From positions 261,808-325,807 of the forward strand of contig CAVZWA010000017.1 of NCBI GenBank assembly GCA_963778935.1: a stretch of 64,000 nucleotides of DNA, read 5' to 3'. This document shows positions 6,346-18,536 of the stretch, one piece after another (the stretch's first letter is position 1; every line of letters starts with the position of its first letter). The notes below the pieces were generated by a model. The model had not been told where the DNA came from and did no database searches. It worked only from the letters and a program-made list of their open reading frames with translations. This DNA comes from an uncultured beta proteobacterium (GTDB lineage Bacteria; Pseudomonadota; Gammaproteobacteria; Burkholderiales; Casimicrobiaceae). A program made the position numbers and the translations under genes.

Positions 6346-7242
6346 TCAACGTTGCGAATAGTGCCGCGCGATCGCGCCCGCCGTCGTCAGCCAGACGACA
6401 TCTCGATGGTTGGCGACATGCGCGAGCGCGCGGCGCAGCTGCCGCAACCGAAACGGCTGCCCGACGATATAGGCGTGCAGCGCCAGACCGAACACGAGAG
6501 GTTGCGCCTCCGATTGCTCGAGCATTTCGTCGAACTGGTCGATGATCATGTCGGCAAATTCGCCGACGCCGACCCGGCGCCCGATGATCGCGCAGGAGTC
6601 GTTCAATTCTTGCGGGTAGGGCACCGAGAGAATTCGTCCGCCGCGGGTCGATAGCCACATCGGCTGATCATCGGCGCACCAATCGAGCACATAGGAATAT
6701 CCGGCTTCGTGCAGCAGATCTGGCGTGACCGGCGTTTCGGCAATCCAGGGACCGAGCCAGCCTTCGGGACGCTTGCCCTCGCGCCGTTCGATGCTTGCGG
6801 TAACGCCGTCGATAAGCTGCCGCTCGGCGGCCTCGTCGAGCCCGGATTGCGCTTCGGAATTGGTGCGTCCATGCGCTGCGATTTCGTCGCCGCGCGCGCG
6901 AAAGGCGTCGACCAGCGCCGGACAATGTTCGTAGATCTCGCTGTTGACGAGCGCTGAAACGGGCAGCCGCAACTCGTCGAACAAGGCCAGCAGACGCCAT
7001 GCGCCGACGCGATTGCCGTAATCGCGCCACGAGTAGTTCAAAACATCCGGCTGCTTCATGCCGGGCACGAGCTCCTCGGTGAGTCCCTCCCCAAAGGCAT
7101 AGTGCTCGAGATTCAGCGCGACATAGCAGGCGAGCCGTTTTCCTCCCGGCCAGACAAACACAGGTCGGTGGACGATCGGAGAGTAGTCGTAGCGGTGGTG
7201 CGTGCGCAGCATCGAACGATTCTCCGTAGTGAACGCTGTCAA
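6346..7242 (-). CDS. polysaccharide-deacetylase-fold hydrolase, PuuE (allantoinase)-like
   Basis: 298 aa. YGNRVGAWRLLALF, EIAAHG, PEGWLGPW, YVLDW.ADDQP and LHAYIVGQPFR follow the PuuE-type pattern as I recall it, but the sequence is divergent. Confidence 0.75.
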   Translation of the reverse strand: MTAFTTENRSMLRTHHRYDYSPIVHRPVFVWPGGKRLACYVALNLEHYAFGEGLTEELVPGMKQPDVLNYSWRDYGNRVGAWRLLALFDELRLPVSALVNSEIYEHCPALVDAFRARGDEIAAHGRTNSEAQSGLDEAAERQLIDGVTASIERREGKRPEGWLGPWIAETPVTPDLLHEAGYSYVLDWCADDQPMWLSTRGGRILSVPYPQELNDSCAIIGRRVGVGEFADMIIDQFDEMLEQSEAQPLVFGLALHAYIVGQPFRLRQLRRALAHVANHRDVVWLTTAGAIARHYSQR

Positions 7243-7994
7243 CTCGGGCGTTTCGCGGCCGCGAAACGCTGCGCAATGGCGGGATCGACGTCGACTAATT
7301 CACGGTCGGTTGGCGGCGCGTAGCTGCCGGCACGCGGTTTGGGAAGTGCGAGGCGGACGAGCAGCTCTGCCTGCCGAACACCGCACGCAATGCAGTCGAT
7401 CATCGGTACGGAAACGTCAGGCTGGAGGCGCCGCGGCACGCCCGCCATGACGGCGCCGGTGAGCACGATCGTCTCCGCGAAATCGCGCAGGACGAGGTCC
7501 TGGGCTGCGGCGACAATTTCCCGATCGAGCTCGGGATGATCGCCGCGCCCATAGGCGGCAGTACTCTCGAGCACCCGCCAGCCGGCGATACGCGTGGCGA
7601 GCCCGTAGCTGGCAACCAGCTCGTGATACATCGGCAGCACCCGCCGCCCGAAAGTGATGACACCGACGCGGCCGCCGAGCATGCATGCCGTCAGCAGACC
7701 CGCTTCGGTCATTCCCACGACCGGAATCGGCAACAGCTCCCGCGCCCCGCGCAGACCGGTGTCGTACGAGACCGCGATCAGTACGGCATCGCAGGTCGGT
7801 GCGTGCTTTGACACCAATGCAATCGTCGAGTGCTCGCCGATCGCATGCTCCGCCCGTGATCCGATGACCCGTCCGCCGAAGGTGCCGGTCACGGCGACGA
7901 TTTCAGTGTCCGGCCCGGCGGCAGCGCGTGCCTCGCTCGTGACTTTCTCGGTGACGATTTCGGACGTATTGGCGTTGACGACAAGAATGCGCAT
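7239..7994 (-). CDS. Asp/Glu/hydantoin racemase family protein (hydantoin/allantoin racemase-like)
   Basis: 251 aa. MRILVVNANTS start and two Cys regions (LIAVSYDTG... / MIDCIACG). 4-nt overlap with the downstream PuuE-like gene. Confidence 0.82.
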   Translation of the reverse strand: MRILVVNANTSEIVTEKVTSEARAAAGPDTEIVAVTGTFGGRVIGSRAEHAIGEHSTIALVSKHAPTCDAVLIAVSYDTGLRGARELLPIPVVGMTEAGLLTACMLGGRVGVITFGRRVLPMYHELVASYGLATRIAGWRVLESTAAYGRGDHPELDREIVAAAQDLVLRDFAETIVLTGAVMAGVPRRLQPDVSVPMIDCIACGVRQAELLVRLALPKPRAGSYAPPTDRELVDVDPAIAQRFAAAKRPS

Positions 7995-8030: not shown

Positions 8031-8783
8031 CTAGGAGAACACGGCCTCGAGGTCGATGTCGCCCTTGGCCGCCAGATTCAGGTCCAGCGAGCCTTCGACA
8101 TGATTGAGGTGCTCGACCATGAGCGCGGCCGCGCGATCGGGATCGTGCGCCTCGACCGCATCGATGATGCCGCTGTGCTCGTGGTAGGGGCACGACGGGA
8201 TGTTCGGCGCGTCATACAGGATGATCACGAGGCAAGTCAGCGTCTCCAGTTCGCGCATCGTGCGGACGAGGAAGGTGTTGCCCGCCATCTCCGCGATGAT
8301 CTGGTGGAAATCGCCGGACAGCCGGATGATCGCCCGTTGGTCATTGGCCGCTCGCGCGGCCGATTCGAGCGCGACGTGTGCGCGCAATCGCGCGACCTGG
8401 CCTGCTGTCGCCGCGTCGGCAAGCCGTCGCACGAGATCCGGCTCGATCAGGCGCCGCGCTGCAAAGACGTCGCGCGCCTCCTCGACGGTCGGGCTGCTGA
8501 CGAACGCCCCCCGATTGGGAATGACGTTGACGATGGCGTCATGGGCGAGCCGCGCCAGGGCCTGGCGGATCTTGGTCCTGCTGACGCCGAACACTCCCGC
8601 AAGCCGCTCCTCCACCAATTGGGTGCCGGGCGGCAGCTGATGCGCAAGGATCGCGCCCAGCACCCGCTGATAGATCCCGTCGATGCTGAGTGGTGCTGCC
8701 TTGCGCCGGGGCTTTGCTTCGACCGTGTCGCGGTTGGCCCCCGGATCCAGCCAAGGCTTGGGTGTCAGCTCGATCTGCACCAT
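8031..8783 (-). CDS. GntR/FadR-family transcriptional regulator
   Basis: wHTH GVSRTKIRQALARLAHDAIV plus an FCD-type C-terminal domain. I prefer ATG 8783 (MVQIELTP...) over the TTG at 8807 used by the ORF track. Confidence 0.88.
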   Translation of the reverse strand: MVQIELTPKPWLDPGANRDTVEAKPRRKAAPLSIDGIYQRVLGAILAHQLPPGTQLVEERLAGVFGVSRTKIRQALARLAHDAIVNVIPNRGAFVSSPTVEEARDVFAARRLIEPDLVRRLADAATAGQVARLRAHVALESAARAANDQRAIIRLSGDFHQIIAEMAGNTFLVRTMRELETLTCLVIILYDAPNIPSCPYHEHSGIIDAVEAHDPDRAAALMVEHLNHVEGSLDLNLAAKGDIDLEAVFS

Positions 8784-8796
8784 TTTGTCCAGATGA

Positions 8797-8808
8797 ATTG
8801 TATACAAT
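8797..8808. promoter_or_regulatory. perfect palindrome ATTGTATACAAT, candidate GntR-family operator
   Basis: 12-nt perfect dyad, 14 nt upstream of the regulator ATG. It fits the generic GntR/FadR operator form T.GT-N-AC.A. Confidence 0.55.
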
Positions 8809-9066: not shown

Positions 9067-10065
9067 ATGATTCGAATTCTGACGAAGTTCGCGGTGGTTG
9101 TCTGCATGACGGTGCTTGGAGCATCCGTCGCATCGGCGCAGGAAAAGCTCCGGATTGCCGGCAACTTTACGCCAGACCATTCGTCGAGCGTTGCCATCGA
9201 AGCGTTCAAGGTGGAAGTCGAGAAGGCGTCCAACGGCAAGCTCGTGATCGAGGTCTTCAACAACATGCAGCTTGGTGGCGCACAGGAGAACGTCACCCAG
9301 ACCCGCGCCGGCACGATTCACATGACCTATGTCGGCATGGCGTTTCTGTCCCGCACCGTCCCTGAACTCGAAGCCGTCAGCCTGCCCTTTCTGTTTCCGA
9401 ACCGCGAAGTCGCCTACAAGGTGATGGACGGGCCGGTGGGCGTTCTTATCGACCAGAAACTGGCGGACAAGGGCTTCGTCGCGCTCGGCTACATGGAGCT
9501 CGGCGCGCGGCAGGTGACCAACGGCGTGCGCCCGATCAAGACCATTGCCGATTTCAAGGGCTTGAAGATCCGCCTGCAGCCGAATGAAACCCATCTCGCG
9601 ACGTTCCGCGCGCTCGGCGCGAACCCGGTCGCGATGGATATCCGCGAGGTGTACTCGGCGCTGGAGCAGAAAGTGCTCGACGGCCAGGAGAATCCGTACA
9701 ACCTGATCCTCGCCAGCCGCTTTTTCGAGGTGCAGAAGTACGTCTCCAACACCGCCCATTTTTTCGACTTCATTGCGGTCGTCGCCAACAAGAAAAAAAT
9801 GGATTCACTGTCGCCCGAACATCAGCAGATCATCAAGACGGCGATGAAGAACGTTGTCGCCGTGCAGCGGGCCGGCGCCGCGAAGGCTGACGCCGACGCG
9901 CTGGTCGAGCTGCAGAAAAAAGGCATGCAGTTTGACGCCATGCCGGCCTCCGAACGCGAGGCGATGCGCAAGGCGACCGCCGGCGTCGTGGACGACATCA
10001 AGAAGCGCGTTGGCGCACCGCTCGTCGATCAGGTTCTGGCCGAAGTCAAAAAAGCCGGCGGCTGA
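9067..10065 (+). CDS. TRAP transporter substrate-binding protein (DctP family), module 1
   Basis: 332 aa from ATG 9067, preceded by AAAGGAGACAGGGAG. Signal peptide ...ASVASAQE. DctP motifs include LGARQVTNGVRPIKTIADFKGLKIR, with the conserved Arg present. Confidence 0.9.
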   Translation: MIRILTKFAVVVCMTVLGASVASAQEKLRIAGNFTPDHSSSVAIEAFKVEVEKASNGKLVIEVFNNMQLGGAQENVTQTRAGTIHMTYVGMAFLSRTVPELEAVSLPFLFPNREVAYKVMDGPVGVLIDQKLADKGFVALGYMELGARQVTNGVRPIKTIADFKGLKIRLQPNETHLATFRALGANPVAMDIREVYSALEQKVLDGQENPYNLILASRFFEVQKYVSNTAHFFDFIAVVANKKKMDSLSPEHQQIIKTAMKNVVAVQRAGAAKADADALVELQKKGMQFDAMPASEREAMRKATAGVVDDIKKRVGAPLVDQVLAEVKKAGG

Positions 10066-10092
10066 CGCTCCGCGGTTGACGGGGGTTCGAGC

Positions 10093-10638
10093 ATGAGCGG
10101 ACACACCACTTACGCACCGGCACCCGCCAGCGGCGCGCTACGACCGCTGGCGGCGCTGATCGGCGCGCTCGACGTCGCCGCCGCCTGGGCGCTGGTGGTG
10201 CTCATCGCCACGATGGTCGCGCTGGTTTCGGCGCAGGTGTTCATGCGCTACATCCTGAACAGTTCGATCGGGTGGACCGACGAAGTGTCGCGGCTGACCT
10301 TCGTCTGGTCAATCTTCCTTGCCATCCCTCTCGGCATCAAGGCCGGCGTTCACATCGGCATGGAAATCCTGACCGCGCGACTGCCGAAGAACGTGCAGGA
10401 CGTGCTCGCGCGCGCAGTGGCACTGGCGGGCGCGGCCATGATGACGCTCGTGGCGTGGCAGGCTGCCGTGCTGGCTTTCGACCAGTGGGACGAGATGATG
10501 GCGTCGGTCAACATGAGCTCCGCCTGGTTCATCGTTGCCGTGGCCATCGGCTGCGCCCACTCGGCGCTGCATCTCATCTGGATCATGTTGACCGGCAAGG
10601 GCCGCGTCGACGAAGAACTCGCCAAGGACCTCGACTGA
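10093..10638 (+). CDS. TRAP transporter small permease (DctQ family), module 1
   Basis: 181 aa, four predicted TM segments, WTDEVSRL motif, positioned between the P and M genes. Confidence 0.85.
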   Translation: MSGHTTYAPAPASGALRPLAALIGALDVAAAWALVVLIATMVALVSAQVFMRYILNSSIGWTDEVSRLTFVWSIFLAIPLGIKAGVHIGMEILTARLPKNVQDVLARAVALAGAAMMTLVAWQAAVLAFDQWDEMMASVNMSSAWFIVAVAIGCAHSALHLIWIMLTGKGRVDEELAKDLD

Positions 10639-11918
10639 TGACGCTATTGATCATCTTCCTGTTTCTCGGTATTTCGCTGCTCGGTATGCCGCTCGCGTTT
10701 GCGCTTGGCGCCAGCGCGATTGCCGGACTGGTGGTGAGCGACGTCGATTTCAATCTGCTCCCGTCGCGCATGATGAATGCGGTGAATGCGTTCCCGCTGA
10801 TGTCCATTCCGTTCTTCATTCTTGCCGGCGAGCTGATGCTGAAAGCGGGAATGATGGAACGGCTGATCGATCTCGCCAACACGATCGTCGGGCGCGTTCG
10901 CGGCGGACTCGGGCACGTCACGATGCTGGCGGGGCTGGGTCTGTCGACGGTCTCGGGTGCCGCGGTCGCCGACGCGAGCGCTCTCGGCAGTACGCTGATT
11001 CCGTCGCTGCGCAAACACTATGGCGTCGGCTTCTCGGCCGCGGTGTGCGCAGCCGCGGCCAACCTCGGCCCGATCATTCCGCCGTCGGGCGCGATGATCG
11101 TATATGCGTTCATGGCCGGGCCGACGGTTTCAGTGGGCGGCATGTTCATGGCGGGCATCATCCCGGGGCTGATCCTCGTGGCGTCGATGATGGCGATGGT
11201 GTCGATCATCGCCATCCGCCGCAATTACCCGCTCACCGGCGAGGCGTTCGCACTGGCCCGCGTCCTGCACGAACTCAAGCGGTCGATCATCATTTTCCTC
11301 ATGCCGGTGGTCGTCATCGGCGGCATCGTCGGTGGCGCGTTCACGGCAACCGAGGGCTCGGCGATCGCAGTGATCTATGCGTTGCTCATCGGCCTATTCG
11401 TCACGCGCAAGCTCAAGGTCACCGATCTGCCAGAAGCCATCATCCGCACCGCCGTCACGTCGGCGATCGTCGGGGCGATGATTGCCTTTGCCTCGGTCGT
11501 CACCTACATGTTGACGATCGACCAGCTGCCGCAGCACCTCACCGTCTTGATGAAGACGCTCACTTCCAGCCCGATCGCATATCTCCTGATCGTGGCGGTC
11601 GCGTTGTTCGTGGTGGGCATGTTCCTGGAGTCGAACGCCGCCTACATCATGCTGGTGCCGCTGCTGCATCCGATCGCGCTGCAATACGGCATCGATCCCC
11701 TGCATTTCGGTTTCCTGTTCGTGTTCAACCTCGTGATCGGAATGCTGACGCCACCGGTAGGCGTGGTGCTGTTCGTGCTGTGCGGCCTGACCGGTCTCAA
11801 GCTTGGCGAGCTGACGAAGCACGTGTGGCCGTTCATCACCATCATGTACGGTCTGCTGTTCGTCTGCATGTTCTACCCGCCGATCGTCCTGACCGTGCCG
11901 CGCATGCTTGGTTATTGA
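10638..11918 (+). CDS. TRAP transporter large permease (DctM family), module 1
   Basis: 426 aa from the ATG overlapping the dctQ stop (TGATG). Polytopic, with FFILAGELM and GPIIPPS motifs. Confidence 0.92.
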   Translation: MTLLIIFLFLGISLLGMPLAFALGASAIAGLVVSDVDFNLLPSRMMNAVNAFPLMSIPFFILAGELMLKAGMMERLIDLANTIVGRVRGGLGHVTMLAGLGLSTVSGAAVADASALGSTLIPSLRKHYGVGFSAAVCAAAANLGPIIPPSGAMIVYAFMAGPTVSVGGMFMAGIIPGLILVASMMAMVSIIAIRRNYPLTGEAFALARVLHELKRSIIIFLMPVVVIGGIVGGAFTATEGSAIAVIYALLIGLFVTRKLKVTDLPEAIIRTAVTSAIVGAMIAFASVVTYMLTIDQLPQHLTVLMKTLTSSPIAYLLIVAVALFVVGMFLESNAAYIMLVPLLHPIALQYGIDPLHFGFLFVFNLVIGMLTPPVGVVLFVLCGLTGLKLGELTKHVWPFITIMYGLLFVCMFYPPIVLTVPRMLGY

Positions 11919-11922
11919 GCCC

Positions 11923-12675
11923 ATGTCCTCAACTGGACTCAGGCCTCAGGACTTGTTCGCGGCACCGAAGCATTTCATCGGCTGGATCACGCCGTCGGCG
12001 AACAACGTTGTCGAGCGCATCACGCTCGGCATAATGCGCGATTTCCCCGAGGTCTCGCCCCATTTTTCGCGCACGTCAGTCGCGGGCGCCCGTGATCCGT
12101 TCCCCGCGAGCTACGATTTCGACGACATGCTGCTCGCGGCGCGGCTGCTCGGCGACGCGCAACTCGACGTTGTCGCCTGGAACGGCAGCAAGGGCGGCAG
12201 CCTCGATTTCGCGCTGGATCACGATCTGGTCGCCCGCATCGAAACGCTCACCGGCGCCCGATCCACGACCTCGACGCTCGCCATCGACAGCGTCTTTCGC
12301 GAGGACGGCGTGAAACGATTCGCGCTGGCATGTCCATACATCGACAGCTATCGGCAGCGGATCGTCGACACCTTTGGCAGGGAAGGCTACGAATGCGTCG
12401 CCGCGCGCAATGCGGGCCTGGCCGACAACTACTCGTTCTCGCGGATACCCGCAGACACGATCGTCACCATGCTTCGTGACGTGGCCAAGGCGAAACCCGA
12501 GGCAATCATCACCTTCTGCACCAATTTTCCGGCGGGCCCATTAGTCGCCGAAATGGAAGACGAGCTCGGCATGCCGATCTACGACACCGTGACGATGGCT
12601 GTGTGGGGAGCGCTGAAGCTGGTCGGTGTCGACACGCGCCCGGGCCGTTCCTGGGGCCGCGTGTTCGACCGATGA
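11923..12675 (+). CDS. Asp/Glu-racemase-fold protein, maleate isomerase / arylmalonate decarboxylase / EutA-like (paralogue 1)
   Basis: 250 aa. Motifs TPSANN, WNGSKGG, ITFCTNFP and SWGRVF. Starts 4 nt after dctM and shares an ATGA overlap with the next gene. Confidence 0.8.
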   Translation: MSSTGLRPQDLFAAPKHFIGWITPSANNVVERITLGIMRDFPEVSPHFSRTSVAGARDPFPASYDFDDMLLAARLLGDAQLDVVAWNGSKGGSLDFALDHDLVARIETLTGARSTTSTLAIDSVFREDGVKRFALACPYIDSYRQRIVDTFGREGYECVAARNAGLADNYSFSRIPADTIVTMLRDVAKAKPEAIITFCTNFPAGPLVAEMEDELGMPIYDTVTMAVWGALKLVGVDTRPGRSWGRVFDR

Positions 12676-14192
12676 AACCGATGGCGAAATCACTGCTCGT
12701 TCGTGGCGCGCATGTGCTGACGATGGATGACGCATGCAGTGAATGGCCACGCGCCGACGTGGTCATCGAGAACGGCGTCATCGCCGCGATCGGGCCGGAT
12801 GCTGCGCGTGGATGGCCGCGCCCATTTGACCGCTGCATCGAAGGAGACGGCCTGCTCGCGATGCCCGGACTCATCAACGCTCATTTCCATTCGCCGGGGA
12901 CGCTCCTCAAGGGTTCGCTCGACGGACTGCCGCTCGAGCTGTTCATGCTCCACGAGGTGCCACCGCTCGCCGACAACGGCGCCGGCGGGCGCACCGGCTA
13001 TGTCACTGCGCTGCTTGGCGCAGTGGAGATGCTCCGGCGCGGGATCACGGCGGTCCATGACGATGCATTTCACGTTCCCATCGCGACCGAAGCGTCGATC
13101 GACGCGATCATGCAGGCCTACCTCGACGTCGGAATACGTGCGACGGTGGCGATCGACCAGCCCAATATCGTCGAATACGACAAATATCCGTACCTGCGCG
13201 AGCTCCTGCCCGACGACGTCGTCCGGGCAATGGACGCCGCACCTCGACAATCCGGACCGGAATTGCTCGGGCTGTATCGGCACCTGATCGATCGCTGGCA
13301 TGGCGCGGGCAACGACCGGCTGCGCGTCGCGGTGTCGTGCTCGGCGCCGCAACGCGTCACGCACGACTACTTTGCCGGCCTGTCGGCGTTGAGTCGGACC
13401 CATGACCTGCCTTTCAACATTCACATCCTCGAAACCAGGTTGCAGCGCGTGCTGGGCGCCGAGAAATTCGGCAAGTCACTGGTCCGTCACGTCCACGATC
13501 TGGGCTTCCTCGACGAACGGATGATGGTGATCCACGCGATCTGGGTCGACCATGATGACATCCATCTCCTCGCCGATGCCGGGTGCACGGTCGCCCACAA
13601 TCCCGTGTGCAACCTGCGGCTCGGGAGCGGAATAATGCCGTTCTATCGCCTGCGCGAGGCGGGTGTGCCGATCTGCCTCGGTACCGACGAAGCGACCGTG
13701 GACGATTCGATCAACCTGTGGTTCGTCGCCAAGACCGCTGCCCTGCTACACACCATCACCAACCCGGAGTACCGCGACTGGCCGACTGCCGGCGAAATGT
13801 TGCGCGCGTTGACACGTGGCGGCGCGCGTGCCCTGCGGCAGCCCGATCGGCTGGGCCAGCTCGTGCCAGGTTGTGTCGCCGACCTCGCACTGATCGACCT
13901 GGACACTTTGGCCTTCACACCGCTCAACGATCTCGAACGCCAGCTCGTGTTCTGCGAGGACGGCGGCTCGGTGCGGTTCACGATCGTCGCCGGCCGTGTC
14001 GTTTTCGAAGACGGGCACGTCACCACCGTGGACGAGCACGCGCTGCGCGCGGAAGCCCGCGAACTGATGGCGGCACAGCGCGGGACATTGGCGCGCGGCA
14101 GGGAACAGGCGTCACGACTGGAACCATACTACCGACAGATGTACCTGCGCGCGGCGGATCAGGACGTCGGCATGAAACGCTGGGCCCATTGA
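12672..14192 (+). CDS. amidohydrolase-superfamily enzyme, deaminase/chlorohydrolase (TRZ/ATZ, SsnA-like) subgroup
   Basis: 506 aa from ATG 12672. GLINAHFH (HxH), FNIHILE (HxxE), VAHNP and GTDEATVDD metal and catalytic motifs. Confidence 0.88.
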   Translation: MKPMAKSLLVRGAHVLTMDDACSEWPRADVVIENGVIAAIGPDAARGWPRPFDRCIEGDGLLAMPGLINAHFHSPGTLLKGSLDGLPLELFMLHEVPPLADNGAGGRTGYVTALLGAVEMLRRGITAVHDDAFHVPIATEASIDAIMQAYLDVGIRATVAIDQPNIVEYDKYPYLRELLPDDVVRAMDAAPRQSGPELLGLYRHLIDRWHGAGNDRLRVAVSCSAPQRVTHDYFAGLSALSRTHDLPFNIHILETRLQRVLGAEKFGKSLVRHVHDLGFLDERMMVIHAIWVDHDDIHLLADAGCTVAHNPVCNLRLGSGIMPFYRLREAGVPICLGTDEATVDDSINLWFVAKTAALLHTITNPEYRDWPTAGEMLRALTRGGARALRQPDRLGQLVPGCVADLALIDLDTLAFTPLNDLERQLVFCEDGGSVRFTIVAGRVVFEDGHVTTVDEHALRAEARELMAAQRGTLARGREQASRLEPYYRQMYLRAADQDVGMKRWAH

Positions 14193-14226
14193 TTTTTCGC
14201 AACCCAATCTCTCAAGGAGCAACACC

Positions 14227-15279
14227 ATGATTGCACGATTGCTTACCACTACCGCGATTGCATCGCTGCTTGCACTGTCGCATGCCGCAACGGCCCAGAA
14301 CCCGACCACGATGCGCATCGCCGGCAATTTCTCATCGAACACCAAACACGTCGACGTGATCGAGAAGCCGTTCTTCACCGGGCTGCCGCAATCGCTGGGC
14401 CTGCCGATGGCCATCAACTACAACGCGATGGACGTCGTGAATGTGCAGGCCGCCGACGCGCTGCGCCTTCTGCGATCGGGGACGTTCGACGTCATGTCGG
14501 TGCAAATCGGCATGGCATCGCGCGACGATCCGTTCTTCGAGGGCATCGACCTGATCGGCGTATCGACCAACATGAAGGACCTGCGGCAGGCGGTCGACGC
14601 CTACCGCGAAGTTTTCGATCAACGACTGCAGTCCCGTTTCAAGGCGAAGGTGCTGACGCTCTGGCCATTCGGTCCGCAAGTGTTCTACTGCAACAAGCCA
14701 ATCAAGACCGTGGATGACATCAAAGGGTTGAAGGTGCGCAGCTTCACGCCTTCGATGGCGGCACTGATCCAGCATCTCGGCGGCACGCCGGTAACATTGC
14801 AGTTTTCGGAGGTATATCCGGCGCTGCAACGCGGTGTGGCCGACTGCGGCGTCACCTCGCCGACGTCAGGCAATACCGGCAAATGGCCCGAGGTTACGTC
14901 CTATTTTCTGCCACTGTCGGTCTCGGGCTCGGTCCAGGGCCACTTCATGAATCTCGACTACTGGAACAAGTTCACGCCGGCCGAACAAAAAAAGATACTC
15001 GCCGAGTTCAAGAAGATGGAGGACCAGATGTGGGACCTCGCGGATCGCGTCAACAGCGATGCGGTCAATTGCAACGTCGGCAAGGAGCCCTGCAAGGAGG
15101 GTGTCAAATTCGCGATGAACCTGGTCCCGGTCACGGCCGCGGATGAGGCGAAGATCAAGGCCGCGGTGACCGCGACAGTGCTGCCGCTCTGGAAGCAGAC
15201 GTGTAACAAGGTCGATCCCAAGTGTTCCGAAACCTGGAACGCCACAGTTGGCAAGACGCGTGGATTCAAGATCGAATAG
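14227..15279 (+). CDS. TRAP transporter substrate-binding protein (divergent DctP family), module 2
   Basis: 350 aa. RBS AAGGAG 8 nt upstream. Signal peptide ...SHAATAQN. Contains KPIKTVDDIKGLKVR, but no Arg where the carboxylate-clamp Arg is expected (LWPFGPQVFYCN). Confidence 0.85.
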   Translation: MIARLLTTTAIASLLALSHAATAQNPTTMRIAGNFSSNTKHVDVIEKPFFTGLPQSLGLPMAINYNAMDVVNVQAADALRLLRSGTFDVMSVQIGMASRDDPFFEGIDLIGVSTNMKDLRQAVDAYREVFDQRLQSRFKAKVLTLWPFGPQVFYCNKPIKTVDDIKGLKVRSFTPSMAALIQHLGGTPVTLQFSEVYPALQRGVADCGVTSPTSGNTGKWPEVTSYFLPLSVSGSVQGHFMNLDYWNKFTPAEQKKILAEFKKMEDQMWDLADRVNSDAVNCNVGKEPCKEGVKFAMNLVPVTAADEAKIKAAVTATVLPLWKQTCNKVDPKCSETWNATVGKTRGFKIE

Positions 15280-15343
15280 CGCCGAAAACGTCCCCCCGGC
15301 CGCGGCCAATGGTCGCGGCCACCAACATTCCGGATGAACCATC

Positions 15344-15949
15344 ATGGACAATCCCATTAGCCGGGTGGTCGAGCCCGTCGCACGCGGGGCTGCGATCGTC
15401 TGCGGCTGGGCGGTGTTGATCTACTCGTTCGCCGTCGCCTACGAAATTCTGGGCCGCAAGCTGTTCGGGTTCTCGTTCCAGGGGATCGACGACATTGGCG
15501 GTTACGCACTCGCAATCACCGCCGCCATCGGCGCATCGTATACGATGGCGATGCGCGGCCACACCCGCGTCGATGTATTCCTCGTGCGCATGCCGATCGG
15601 CTGGCAACGTGCGCTGAATACGATTGCCATGGTGACGATGGCTGTCTTTGGCTGCTACGCCGCGTGGCGCGGCCTCGCGGTCCTGCGCGAAACGATCGAG
15701 TTCCAGAGTGTCGCCACCAACCCGCTGCAGACGCCGCTGTGGCAGCCGCAAATCCTGTGGCTTACCGGGCTCACGCTGTTCGCGCTGATTTCGCTGGCCT
15801 ACGCGTTGCACGCGCTGGCGTTGTGCTTCCGCGGTGGCGGTGAACTCAACCGCTACTATGGTCCTCAAAGTGCGCAGGACGAGCTGGAGGCCGAGCTGAC
15901 CGCGCGCGCAGAGCGCGAGGCGCAGGGCGAAGCAGGAGTCAACCGATGA
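15344..15949 (+). CDS. TRAP transporter small permease (DctQ family), module 2
   Basis: 201 aa, four TM segments, 4-nt overlap with the large permease gene. Confidence 0.85.
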   Translation: MDNPISRVVEPVARGAAIVCGWAVLIYSFAVAYEILGRKLFGFSFQGIDDIGGYALAITAAIGASYTMAMRGHTRVDVFLVRMPIGWQRALNTIAMVTMAVFGCYAAWRGLAVLRETIEFQSVATNPLQTPLWQPQILWLTGLTLFALISLAYALHALALCFRGGGELNRYYGPQSAQDELEAELTARAEREAQGEAGVNR

Positions 15950-17250
15950 TCACCATCACGGCAGCTGCCGTTGGCTTCTTCCTGCTCGTCGGACTGATGG
16001 CCCTCGGCCTGCATGTGGCGTTTGTCATGTTCGCCATCAGCATGCTTGGCGCCATTTTCTATCTCGGCTTGCCGGCCACACTCGAGTTCGGGACGCAATA
16101 CTGGGGTGCAACCAACAATTTCGTTCTGGTAGCCATCCCGTTGTTTGTCCTCCTGGGCGAGCTGCTCGTGCGCGGCGGCTTCACCGACCGGATGTACCGT
16201 TCGCTTTCCGACTGGCTGAATCCGCTGCCCGGCGGCTTGTTGCACACGAACATTGGCGCCTCGGCCATGTTTGCCGCAGTGTCGGGTTCGTCGGTGGCCA
16301 CCGCCGCGACCATCGGCACGGTCGCGATTCCAGCATTCAAGGGGCGCAACTACGACCCGCGACTCGTGCTCGGGTCGATCGCCGCCGGCGCAACGCTCGG
16401 CATCCTGATCCCGCCGTCGATCAACATGATCATCTACGGCGCGATGACCAACACCTCGGTCGGTCGCTTGTACGCAGCCGGCGCAATACCAGGGTTGCTG
16501 CTCACCGCGCTGTTCATGGCGGTGATCGTGGTCGCCTGCTGGTGGAAACCGTCGCTGGCCGGAGCGGTGCCAGCGACCGCGCCACTGCGCGACCGGTTGC
16601 TGCGCTTGATCGACTTGCTGCCGCCGACCGCGATTTTCATTGTCGTCATGGGCAGCATCTACCTCGGCTGGGCAACGCCCACCGAGTCGGCTGCGCTTGG
16701 CGTGGTCATGTCGCTGCTCCTGTGCGCATGCTATCGCAAGGTCAGCATAAAAATGCTGCACGAGTGTTTCGTCACCACGGTCTCGGTGACGGCGATGATC
16801 ATGCTGATTGCAGCGGCGGCGTTCTATCTCAATTTCGTGCTCGGCTTGATGGGTGTGCCGCAGGCGCTTGCCGATTTTGTCAGCAAGCTCGGCGCCTCGC
16901 AGGGCCAGATGATTCTCATCCTCACGGTGTTCTATCTGATTCTCGGCTGCTTCCTCGACGCACTGGCGATGATCATCGGCACCATTCCCATCGTGTTTCC
17001 GCTGGTGGTGGCGCTCGGGATCGACCCGGTGTGGTTCGGCATTTTCCTCGTGGTCATGGCTGAACTCGCCCTCATCACGCCGCCGGTTGGCATGAACCTC
17101 TATGTGGTTCAGGGCATTCGCAAGGAAGGCCTGATCACCGATGTGATCGTCGGCACGCTGCCGTTCCTGTTCATGATGTTGTTGCTCGTGGTCTTGCTGT
17201 GGCTGTTTCCGGACATAGCCCTATGGTTGCCGCGAGTTTCGTTCGGGTGA
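15946..17250 (+). CDS. TRAP transporter large permease (DctM family), module 2
   Basis: 434 aa, polytopic, with LFVLLGELL and GILIPPS motifs. Confidence 0.92.
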   Translation: MITITAAAVGFFLLVGLMALGLHVAFVMFAISMLGAIFYLGLPATLEFGTQYWGATNNFVLVAIPLFVLLGELLVRGGFTDRMYRSLSDWLNPLPGGLLHTNIGASAMFAAVSGSSVATAATIGTVAIPAFKGRNYDPRLVLGSIAAGATLGILIPPSINMIIYGAMTNTSVGRLYAAGAIPGLLLTALFMAVIVVACWWKPSLAGAVPATAPLRDRLLRLIDLLPPTAIFIVVMGSIYLGWATPTESAALGVVMSLLLCACYRKVSIKMLHECFVTTVSVTAMIMLIAAAAFYLNFVLGLMGVPQALADFVSKLGASQGQMILILTVFYLILGCFLDALAMIIGTIPIVFPLVVALGIDPVWFGIFLVVMAELALITPPVGMNLYVVQGIRKEGLITDVIVGTLPFLFMMLLLVVLLWLFPDIALWLPRVSFG

Positions 17251-17290
17251 TGTGACCCATCCCCGAATCACCAGACGAGTGTTGCCGACA

Positions 17291-18019
17291 ATGACGAACC
17301 GAATCCTGCTCGGAATGCTGACCCCGTCCTCCAACACCACGCTGGAGCCGGTGACCACCGCCATGATCGCCGGCATCGCCGAGGCGAGCGCGCATTTCGG
17401 GCGTTTCCGCGTCACCGAGATCGCACTGTCAGATCAGGCATTGGGGCAATTCAACGACAGCGAAATCCTGCGCGCGGCCGAGCTGCTGGCGCACGCCAAG
17501 GTGCAGGTCATCGGCTGGAACGGCACCTCGTCGGGCTGGCTCGGATTCGGAGCGGACCAACGCCTGTGCCAGCGCATCACAGAAGCCACGGGAATACCGG
17601 CGTGCACATCGGTGCTCGCGCTCAATGAGATTTTCCAGCACACCGGCGTGAAGCGCTTCGGCCTGGTGACGCCCTACCGCGATGACGTGCAGGCAGCGAT
17701 CGTGAAGAACTATGCAGCATCCGGATTCGAATGCGTCGCCGAGCGACACCTGCGCAAGCAGGACAATTTCTCGTTCTCGGAGGTTGGTGCCGACGAAATT
17801 CGCCGCATGGTGCGTGAGGTCGCGCAGGAAAAGCCGCAAGCCATCACGATCTTCTGCACCAATCTGCGCGGCGCGCCACTGGTCGCGGAGCTCGAAGCCG
17901 AGACTGGCATCCCGATCTACGACACGATTGCCACCGTCGTGTGGAAATCGCTCGAGCTCGCCGGCGCCGATCCGAAGCGGATCAAGGGTTGGGGCCGGCT
18001 GTTCCAGAAGACCGCCTGA
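17291..18019 (+). CDS. Asp/Glu-racemase-fold protein, maleate isomerase / arylmalonate decarboxylase / EutA-like (paralogue 2)
   Basis: Clear paralogue of 11923..12675: TPSSNTT, WNGTSSG, TIFCTNLR, GWGRLF. The start is either ATG 17291 or GTG 17252. Confidence 0.8.
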   Translation: MTNRILLGMLTPSSNTTLEPVTTAMIAGIAEASAHFGRFRVTEIALSDQALGQFNDSEILRAAELLAHAKVQVIGWNGTSSGWLGFGADQRLCQRITEATGIPACTSVLALNEIFQHTGVKRFGLVTPYRDDVQAAIVKNYAASGFECVAERHLRKQDNFSFSEVGADEIRRMVREVAQEKPQAITIFCTNLRGAPLVAELEAETGIPIYDTIATVVWKSLELAGADPKRIKGWGRLFQKTA

Positions 18020-18026
18020 CCGCCCC

Positions 18027-18536
18027 ATGCCAGACGCGACCGACCAGGATTTGCGCCTGCTGCGTGCTGCCATCGCGCTGTCTGCGCGAGCACGTGAGCA
18101 CGGCAATGAACCCTACGGCGCGTTGCTCGGCGACGCGGGTGGCAAGGTGCGCCTCGAGGCGGAGAACACGCAGGTCAGCGACCGCGATTGCACCGGTCAC
18201 GCCGAGCTAAACCTGATGCGCGAGGCTTCGCGGCGTTTCGATGCCAAGGCGTTGGCGGATTGCACTGTCTATGCGAGCGGCGAACCCTGCCCGATGTGTG
18301 CCGGTGCGATCTACTGGAGCGGCGTGGGGCGCATCGTGTACGCGCTCTCGGTGCGTTCGATGGCTGACCTCGCAGGCGAGGCGGTGGACGAGATTCACCT
18401 CGGTTGCGCTGAGGTTCTCGCGCACGGAACACGTGCGATAGAGATCGCCGGCCCCATGCTCGAGGACGAAGCGCGACGGGTGTTCGACGGTATGCCGCGT
18501 GCGCTTGTGAAGAAAGGAACCAATGCCGGAATTTGA
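18027..18536 (+). CDS. CDA-fold nucleoside/nucleobase deaminase (guanine deaminase / TadA-like)
   Basis: 169 aa from ATG 18027. Zinc motifs HAE and PCPMCAGA. Confidence 0.88.
   Translation: MPDATDQDLRLLRAAIALSARAREHGNEPYGALLGDAGGKVRLEAENTQVSDRDCTGHAELNLMREASRRFDAKALADCTVYASGEPCPMCAGAIYWSGVGRIVYALSVRSMADLAGEAVDEIHLGCAEVLAHGTRAIEIAGPMLEDEARRVFDGMPRALVKKGTNAGI

Follow-up and report, generated by a model that had tools for sequence, protein, structure and literature searches.

Two paralogous genes in a 64,000-nucleotide stretch of DNA from an uncultured beta proteobacterium of the family Casimicrobiaceae (contig CAVZWA010000017.1, positions 261,808–325,807; hereafter, the window) encode racemase-fold proteins in which the first of the two catalytic cysteines is replaced by glycine and the second is retained. 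The sequences of the two proteins, P1 and P2, are best explained if both are intact, functional members of a large uncharacterised clade within the maleate isomerase (MI)/arylmalonate decarboxylase (AMDase)/EutA branch (PF17645) of the Asp/Glu racemase superfamily. P2 is coupled to a D-hydantoinase/dihydropyrimidinase and P1 to a TRZ/ATZ-type amidohydrolase, each behind its own importer, with a GntR/FCD regulator. Its members probably catalyse a one-sided proton transfer during the degradation of a small nitrogen-ring acid. Our literature searches found no paper on this clade or on the P2–hydantoinase pair. The two genes and their catalytic codons are located in the window as follows.

11923–12675, + strand: P1 (paralogue 1), PF17645 one-Cys enzyme of the G-S-K subtype, 250 aa (Pfam Amdase, 61.2 bits)
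12184–12186, + strand: P1 Gly88, codon GGC, at the first catalytic-Cys position, within W-N-G-S-K; aligned to AMDase Gly74
12517–12519, + strand: P1 Cys199, codon TGC, the retained catalytic Cys, within F-C-T-N; aligned to AMDase Cys188
17291–18019, + strand: P2 (paralogue 2), PF17645 one-Cys enzyme of the G-T-S subtype, 242 aa (Pfam Amdase, 80.9 bits)
17522–17524, + strand: P2 Gly78, codon GGC, at the first catalytic-Cys position, within W-N-G-T-S; aligned to AMDase Gly74 and MI Cys76
17855–17857, + strand: P2 Cys189, codon TGC, the retained catalytic Cys, within F-C-T-N; aligned to AMDase Cys188 and MI Cys194

The start codons (ATG 11923 for P1 and ATG 17291 for P2) were chosen by the lengths of the homologues, and the two products are 42% identical. 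A first-pass annotation of this DNA, made from the sequence alone, had read a glycine at the first catalytic position (site 1), no cysteine near it and a conserved cysteine at the second position (site 2). Pairwise and profile hidden Markov model (HMM) alignments to the solved AMDase and MI agree with that reading. In pairwise phmmer alignments with AMDase, P1 Gly88 and P2 Gly78 fall on Gly74, and P1 Cys199 and P2 Cys189 fall on Cys188, while the alignment of P2 with the MI of N. farcinica places Gly78 on Cys76 and Cys189 on Cys194 (the MI chain numbering was checked by counting from Asn14). The same Gly/Cys register was obtained with a profile HMM built from 74 family sequences and compared to the PDB. 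The corresponding stretches read VVAWNGSKGG and ITFCTNFP in P1 and VIGWNGTSSG and TIFCTNLR in P2; the N-terminal TPS[AS]N and C-terminal [SG]WGR[VL]F motifs that had been listed for both paralogues are likewise present in the translations (TPSAN and SWGRVF in P1, TPSSN and GWGRLF in P2). There is no cysteine within three residues of site 1 in either protein. P2 has neither a thiol nor an obvious base at the first catalytic position. In P1, a lysine that is invariant within the P1 subfamily follows two residues after the glycine (G-S-K), and a non-thiol base near site 1 is for this reason conceivable in P1. The annotation had also argued that a one-base site speaks against two-base racemisation. 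This stands for the classical Cys/Cys two-base racemase, which, together with a covalent maleate isomerase, is excluded by the glycine at site 1, but not for a non-thiol base such as the P1 lysine.

Both proteins exceed the gathering cutoff (25.9 bits) of Pfam PF17645 (Amdase; the MI/AMDase/EutA branch). The cutoff of Asp_Glu_race (PF01177) is passed by P2 (37 versus 31 bits), but not by P1 (21.9 bits). An AlphaFold2 model of P2 (pLDDT 85.8, pTM 0.87) was matched by Foldseek to MI with TM scores of 0.86–0.88 and to AMDase with 0.76–0.84.

The family profile was searched against 1.84 billion cluster representatives. The clade comprises 288 clusters (50% identity) at E<1e-30 and 1859 at E<1e-10; all residue counts for the clade refer to the best 150 representatives of these clusters. 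Site 1 is Gly in 140 and Ala in six of 148 representatives, and none has the Cys there whose presence would have undone the one-thiol reading; site 2 is Cys in 116 of the 131 representatives aligned at this position. The pattern of Gly at site 1 and Cys at site 2 is far beyond chance and is a trait of the whole family. The only other cysteine common to P1 and P2, C148 of P2, is Val in 61 and Cys in 55 of 150 representatives and is therefore not a conserved catalytic residue. None of 240 closer homologues departs from the N-G-[TS] and C-T motifs. Across the clade N15, E19, H35, R38, Y129, N159, T190, N191 and D211 (P2 numbering) are nearly invariant, and the conserved blocks are P-S-x-N, E19, H-F-x-R, P-Y, N159, C-T-N and D211. 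Specific to the clade are the Trp-Asn before the glycine, the Thr-Ser (P2) or Ser-Lys (P1) after it, the Asn after C-T and the invariant Asp D211, which, judging from the fold topology, would lie on the glycine side of the cleft, where the last strand of the N-terminal domain ends. Proteins of the P1 type are rare (280 homologous clusters; typically about 250 aa), and those of the P2 type are abundant (at least 7980 clusters).

The nearest two-Cys relatives, which include EutA-like proteins and a fourth paralogue from the same genome, read [YF]-[GAVS]-C-T-[SG] at site 1 and are devoid of the D211-type Asp. The clade has therefore swapped Cys for Gly inside an otherwise conserved loop. The fourth PF17645 paralogue (contig C5:444153-444869, locus L021) keeps both cysteines (AYVCTGG and ISCTNIL) and carries IPPGN in place of TPSxN. 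In phylogenetic analysis the clade is monophyletic (support 100/98). The one-Cys clade, the AMDases and the two-Cys proteins meet at one node of the unrooted tree. When the tree is rooted with PF01177, the outgroup branch is very long and the AMDases are placed, weakly, with the two-Cys group (93/99); such a grouping would mean that the cysteine was lost independently in the two lineages, and the rooted tree is not relied on here.

Among characterised enzymes the best match to the family profile is MI (EC 5.2.1.1; N. farcinica 2xec/2xed and P. putida S16 Iso 4fq5/4fq7), which is matched over its full length (E 5.7e-34) and shares the PSSN...E, H..R, PY, DN and second-Cys positions. P2 residues N15, Y129 and N159 align to the carboxylate-binding positions Asn14, Tyr133 and Asn163 of MI. 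However, the nucleophilic Cys76 of MI is Gly in P1 and P2, albeit the second cysteine (Cys194) is kept; the residues that follow are Thr-Ser (P2) or Ser-Lys (P1) where MI has Leu-Val, C-V-Q is changed to C-T-N, and Asp211 is specific to the clade. According to its title, PDB entry 2xed shows MI carrying the C194S mutation and a covalent succinylcysteine intermediate; the position that has changed in the clade is therefore that of the covalent nucleophile of MI. With Cys76 replaced by Gly, covalent cis-trans isomerisation as in MI is impossible, and we reject the assignment of P1 and P2 as true maleate isomerases. EutA (TIGR02990) was rejected too: its HMM matches with similar strength (66.7 bits for P1 and 69.2 for P2; best family member, E 4e-35), but the cutoff is 318 bits, and the EutA-like proteins retrieved keep the first Cys (G-C-T-S) and have neither PSxN nor Asp211. 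In ectoine loci, EutA is encoded beside TRAP importers and ring amidohydrolases. Two-base Asp/Glu/hydantoin racemases carry Cys or Thr at both positions, whereas P1 and P2 have Gly at site 1.

The resemblance to AMDase (EC 4.1.1.76; Bordetella bronchiseptica, 3dg9/3ip8/3dtv), on which the first-pass annotation had modelled the active site, proved to be partial. Shared features are the one-thiol arrangement itself (Gly74 and Cys188), the G-T-S of P2, which equals G74-T75-S76 of AMDase, Tyr126 in both paralogues, the C-terminal GxGRLF and the membership in the same Pfam family. The remaining positions were compared using the twelve AMDase criteria of Maimanakos et al. (2016; Table 4, PMC4996985). 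The dioxyanion hole, formed in AMDase by T75, S76, Y126 and G189, is T, S, Y and Thr in P2 and S, K, Y and Thr in P1, that is, three of its residues are kept in P2, but G189 is Thr in both proteins and P1 also differs at the first two positions. The large aryl pocket of AMDase (P14-P15, with G189-G190) is not preserved, for both proteins read P-S, and C-T-N replaces C-G-G. In the hydrophobic pocket (L40, V43, Y48, V156 and M159), V156 is replaced by Asn, as in 116 of 140 family representatives, and M159 by Phe; the L40/V43/Y48 region aligns poorly, and the H-F-x-R block common to MI stands there. AMDase has neither the PSxN nor the HxxR block at its N-terminus, and it is matched by the family profile over positions 58–242 only (E 3.5e-28). 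In addition, P1 and P2 score 56.6 and 72.4 bits against the NCBIfam AMDase equivalog arylmal_decarb (NF052327), the cutoff of which is 225 bits. With Ser at Pro15, Thr at Gly189, Asn at Val156 and an equivalog score under the cutoff, neither protein is a true AMDase; the specific analogy fails at these positions, and MI is matched better and at full length. AMDase is reported to need its hydrophobic pocket for decarboxylation, and MI to have a second dioxyanion hole, for its second carboxylate, in that place (bioRxiv 10.64898/2026.01.14.699310). On the evidence of the alignments, the pocket outside site 1 is predicted to be MI-like and polar, not AMDase-like. Decarboxylation of a gem-dicarboxylate, as had been proposed for this site, is therefore possible, but it is not favoured. 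The other suggestion of the annotation, a one-sided protonation step, is still fully viable.

The genes that surround P1 and P2 in the window are the following.

12672–14192, + strand: TRZ/ATZ-type amidohydrolase (deaminase/ring hydrolase family), overlapping the P1 stop codon
18523–19953, + strand: D-hydantoinase/dihydropyrimidinase (NCBIfam PRK13404, 809 bits, cutoff 647; PDB D-hydantoinases, E 1e-117)
9067–11918, + strand: TRAP transporter 1 (TRAP1), directly upstream of P1 (DctP 9067–10065, DctQ 10093–10638, DctM 10638–11918)
14227–17250, + strand: TRAP transporter 2 (TRAP2), directly upstream of P2 (divergent DctP 14227–15279, DctQ 15344–15949, DctM 15946–17250)
18027–18536, + strand: CDA-fold zinc deaminase (HAE...PCxxC; here PCPMC), 169 aa, between P2 and the hydantoinase
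8031–8807, − strand: GntR/FCD regulator, divergent upstream arm
7239–7994, − strand: PF01177 racemase-fold protein (PF01177, 137 bits), divergent upstream arm
6346–7242, − strand: PuuE-like polysaccharide-deacetylase-fold amidohydrolase, divergent upstream arm

The full island is conserved on three metagenome contigs (loci L005–L007; P1 73–80% identical) in the order PuuE-like gene, PF01177 gene, GntR, TRAP1, P1, TRZ/ATZ, TRAP2, P2 and hydantoinase, and a fourth metagenome contig has the same gene order. In L005–L007, TRZ/ATZ orthologues (68–80%) follow P1, TRAP1 orthologues occupy the matching place and the divergent arm is conserved; TRAP2 orthologues adjoin P2-type genes in these three loci as well as in L038, L062, L066 and L069. 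In 12 of 16 loci from 15 other genomes, a hydantoinase orthologue (52–82%) lies within 10 kb of a P2-type gene, and in nine of these the two genes are directly adjacent; the P2 orthologues at those loci are 50–86% identical. Herbaspirillum likewise carries a P2 orthologue (86%) in an operon composed of GntR, an NMT1-type ABC importer, P2 and the hydantoinase. Importers beside P2-type genes vary (TRAP, NMT1-type ABC and MFS), and a GntR/FCD regulator and a PF01177 racemase-fold gene are frequent companions. The partnership with ring-opening amidohydrolases and importers looks obligate. The clade is patchy in even genome samples: seven of 300 other genomes sampled from the order have it and nine of 400 across the phylum, and none of six from the same family. 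More distant family representatives were located on short contigs or had uninformative neighbours.

At two loci the pair is accompanied by further catabolic genes. In L065 (3334–8043), from a large genome, the P2–hydantoinase pair lies just downstream of a xanthine-dehydrogenase-type Mo hydroxylase (large and FAD subunits), an amidase-signature enzyme and LysR; an amidase-signature enzyme is encoded at L069 as well. Downstream of the pair in L063 (11625–17373) come genes for an aldehyde dehydrogenase, a CN-hydrolase and a second hydantoinase. Both gene sets are reminiscent of pyrimidine-type catabolism. The CN_hydrolase of L063 is the only carbamoylase-type gene in the annotated loci, and this near-lack of carbamoylase genes fits an enzyme that disposes of the ring-opened product otherwise.

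Other observations concern the island itself. The CDA-fold deaminase, for which the best NCBIfam match is TadA-like (61 bits, below the cutoff), occupies the 500 bp that separate P2 from the hydantoinase, with an overlap of 14 nt into the start of the latter. It is not found at the corresponding place in L006, L007 or the other P2–hydantoinase loci compared, and since the hydantoinase directly follows P2 in most related loci, it has the appearance of a second deaminase inserted in this lineage. The idea that an entire module had recently been duplicated in tandem was considered and rejected: P1 and P2 are the only clear paralogues, and the two amidohydrolases are unrelated beyond their fold. 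The two DctP proteins share about 25–30% identity and the two DctM proteins about 29–33%. For DctP1 the closest solved proteins are 4p47 (E 1e-58) and 7bbr (E 1e-55). DctP2 (14227–15279, + strand) is very divergent (Pfam DctP, 91 bits versus 265 for DctP1), and its nearest solved relatives are the distant Bordetella proteins 2pfy/2pfz (E 1e-13), presumably pyroglutamate binders. In the specificity loops of the hydantoinase, Met and Tyr stand in place of L65 and F152 of the Bacillus enzyme, the loop at F159 is altered, and there is no obvious carboxylate clamp. The PF01177 protein (7239–7994, − strand) is apparently without Cys at either catalytic position, with Val at Cys79 and Gly at Cys184 in one phmmer alignment with Klebsiella allantoin racemase chains. 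In L005 (12407–14331), only ~198 of the 242 residues of P2 are covered by the orthologue, which has no gene call, and the hydantoinase is 403 aa long compared to ~473; this shortening could be an assembly error or local decay. Locus L037 (G541:C1:1456000-1475900), in which the divergent arm is rearranged, has P2 and GntR on one strand, followed by a run of the PF01177 gene, TRZ/ATZ and the PuuE-like gene and then by TRAP1, after which come a diverged P1-like gene (38%) with one in-frame TGA and DctP2. The island genes travel together here in a different order, and the P1-like copy may be decaying.

Taken together, we tentatively propose that P1 and P2 are lone-thiol enediolate enzymes coupled to cyclic amidohydrolases, most likely of the lyase/hydratase type. 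Our confidence, somewhat short of an even chance, refers to the general one-base, amidohydrolase-coupled reading, of which the lyase/hydratase is the most likely subtype. The pathway would be the catabolism of an imported small acidic N-heterocycle of the ureide, imide or pyrimidine type, with the enzyme acting on the ring-opened product or on a ring precursor. The Cys189-type thiol(ate) would be the sole residue to transfer a proton: with a carboxylate or carbonyl group bound in the oxyanion hole, it would protonate or deprotonate the adjacent carbon, so that an enediolate is formed. With no second thiol, the partner event would most likely take place where the Cys-to-Gly change has made room, and a group borne by water or by the substrate would be added there or would leave; D211 in P2 and the lysine after the glycine in P1 are candidate helpers on the Gly face. 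The enzyme would then catalyse, as an independent lyase or hydratase, only the latter half of the MI reaction, e.g. converting N-carbamoyl-aspartate to fumarate and urea, or hydrating a conjugated C=C bond. This subtype is the most economical, because what the clade has lost is the nucleophile of MI, and MI completes its reaction by a beta-elimination from a 2-substituted succinate that is driven by Cys194. It would also explain how the ring-opened product is consumed without a carbamoylase. A mechanistic precedent exists in the proline racemase family, where proteins with a Cys-Cys pair act as racemases or epimerases and those with Cys-Thr as a dehydratase (PMC3958920). The latter, trans-3-hydroxy-L-proline dehydratase, derives from a cofactor-free racemase scaffold with two Cys in which, after the loss of one, a single base catalyses elimination; its fold and substrate are unrelated.

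Several observations weigh against this proposal. No hydantoinase is nearby in four of the 16 P2-type loci, and one P1-like gene stands alone. The amidase-signature, CN_hydrolase and aldehyde dehydrogenase genes at some loci suggest other downstream routes. P2 keeps the AMDase-type dioxyanion residues T75/S76, which is compatible with a decarboxylase. Moreover, D211, N77 and the P1 lysine are placed relative to the substrate site from the fold topology only.

The residues shared with AMDase lend themselves to a different reading, which we regard as unlikely: a cofactor-free decarboxylase that expels CO2 from a gem-dicarboxylate or an alpha-carboxy heterocycle, such as an aminomalonate- or ureidomalonate-type ring-opening product, with Cys189 protonating the enediolate on one face. 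The Gly/Cys arrangement is that of AMDase, the G-T-S of P2 is identical, Tyr126 is kept and both proteins pass the PF17645 cutoff; AMDases attach at the node of the clade in the unrooted tree, and AMDase genes, too, are found beside TRAP, TTT and ABC importers (PMC4996985). What speaks against a decarboxylase are the departures at P15, G189 and V156, to which P1 adds a Lys at S76, and the arylmal_decarb scores of 57–72 bits against a cutoff of 225. At the V156 position the nearly invariant Asn, common to MI, would create a polar second pocket that should stabilise a carboxylate, not expel it, and the distant root groups AMDases with the two-Cys proteins instead of the clade, although weakly.

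A racemase or epimerase, in which Cys189 works with a non-thiol second base (the lysine in P1; Asp211 or an Asp-activated water in P2), we consider improbable to much the same degree. Such an enzyme would interconvert the enantiomers of the ring compound or of the N-carbamoyl or half-amide product, so that a stereospecific amidohydrolase could consume both. The partner of P2 matches D-hydantoinases, of which a racemase is the classical companion, the P1 lysine is invariant, Asp211 is invariant in the clade and missing from its two-Cys relatives, and P2 passes the Asp_Glu_race cutoff. However, glycine is no base, Cys never occurs at site 1 in the representatives, and the Thr/Ser at +1/+2 match oxyanion-hole residues of AMDase, not bases. 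A separate PF01177 racemase-fold gene is frequent at the same loci, and P2 therefore need not be the ring racemase. Besides, 5-substituted hydantoins racemise fairly easily unaided.

Still less probable, and in our opinion very unlikely, is a tautomerase or 1,3-proton-shift isomerase, in which a single base would move a proton suprafacially or ketonise an enol(ate), for instance to present the hydrolysable keto form of a barbiturate-type ring to the hydantoinase or to ketonise an enamine or enol made by a deaminase. One base would suffice for such chemistry, the pairing with deaminase-type and ring-opening amidohydrolases is tight, and one locus combines a Mo hydroxylase with an amidase in a manner reminiscent of oxidative pyrimidine breakdown. 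NMT1-type binding proteins recur beside P2, and members of this family bind pyrimidines. Yet the Mo-enzyme context is confined to one locus, the fold offers no precedent, and, judging from the TRAP importers and the MI-like pocket, the substrate should be a true carboxylate. The loss of a catalytic residue might also suggest an isomerase descendant without activity, kept as a binding or accessory protein; this is highly improbable, given that the remaining Cys and about 15 pocket positions are strongly conserved across at least 288 clusters and that the genes occupy enzyme positions in catabolic operons.

The lyase/hydratase reading can be extended to the whole WNG[TS]/CTN clade, a bolder version that we hold to be doubtful, though less so than a tautomerase. 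The clade would then consist of cofactor-free carbon-heteroatom lyases or hydratases derived from MI by deletion of the nucleophile, which together with the hydantoinase would form a carbamoylase-independent ureide- or pyrimidine-type route (e.g. from the ring to an N-carbamoyl-aspartate-like acid and on to a fumarate-like acid and urea), with P1 and P2 serving different imported substrates or enantiomers.

Within this cofactor-free fold, AMDase is the only natural one-Cys type that has been characterised biochemically, and its physiological substrate is still unknown (PMC4996985). With at least 288 clusters at 50% identity, the clade described here far outnumbers the AMDases, and it has a different, MI-like pocket. 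Its repeatable genomic partner, the D-hydantoinase/dihydropyrimidinase with an importer and GntR, makes the natural role of one-thiol racemase-fold enzymes directly testable. Such enzymes also have practical appeal as stereoselective biocatalysts that need no cofactor and work next to the hydantoinase process of industry. For the soil Proteobacteria that carry it, the clade suggests that small nitrogen-ring acids are broken down by a route not yet described.

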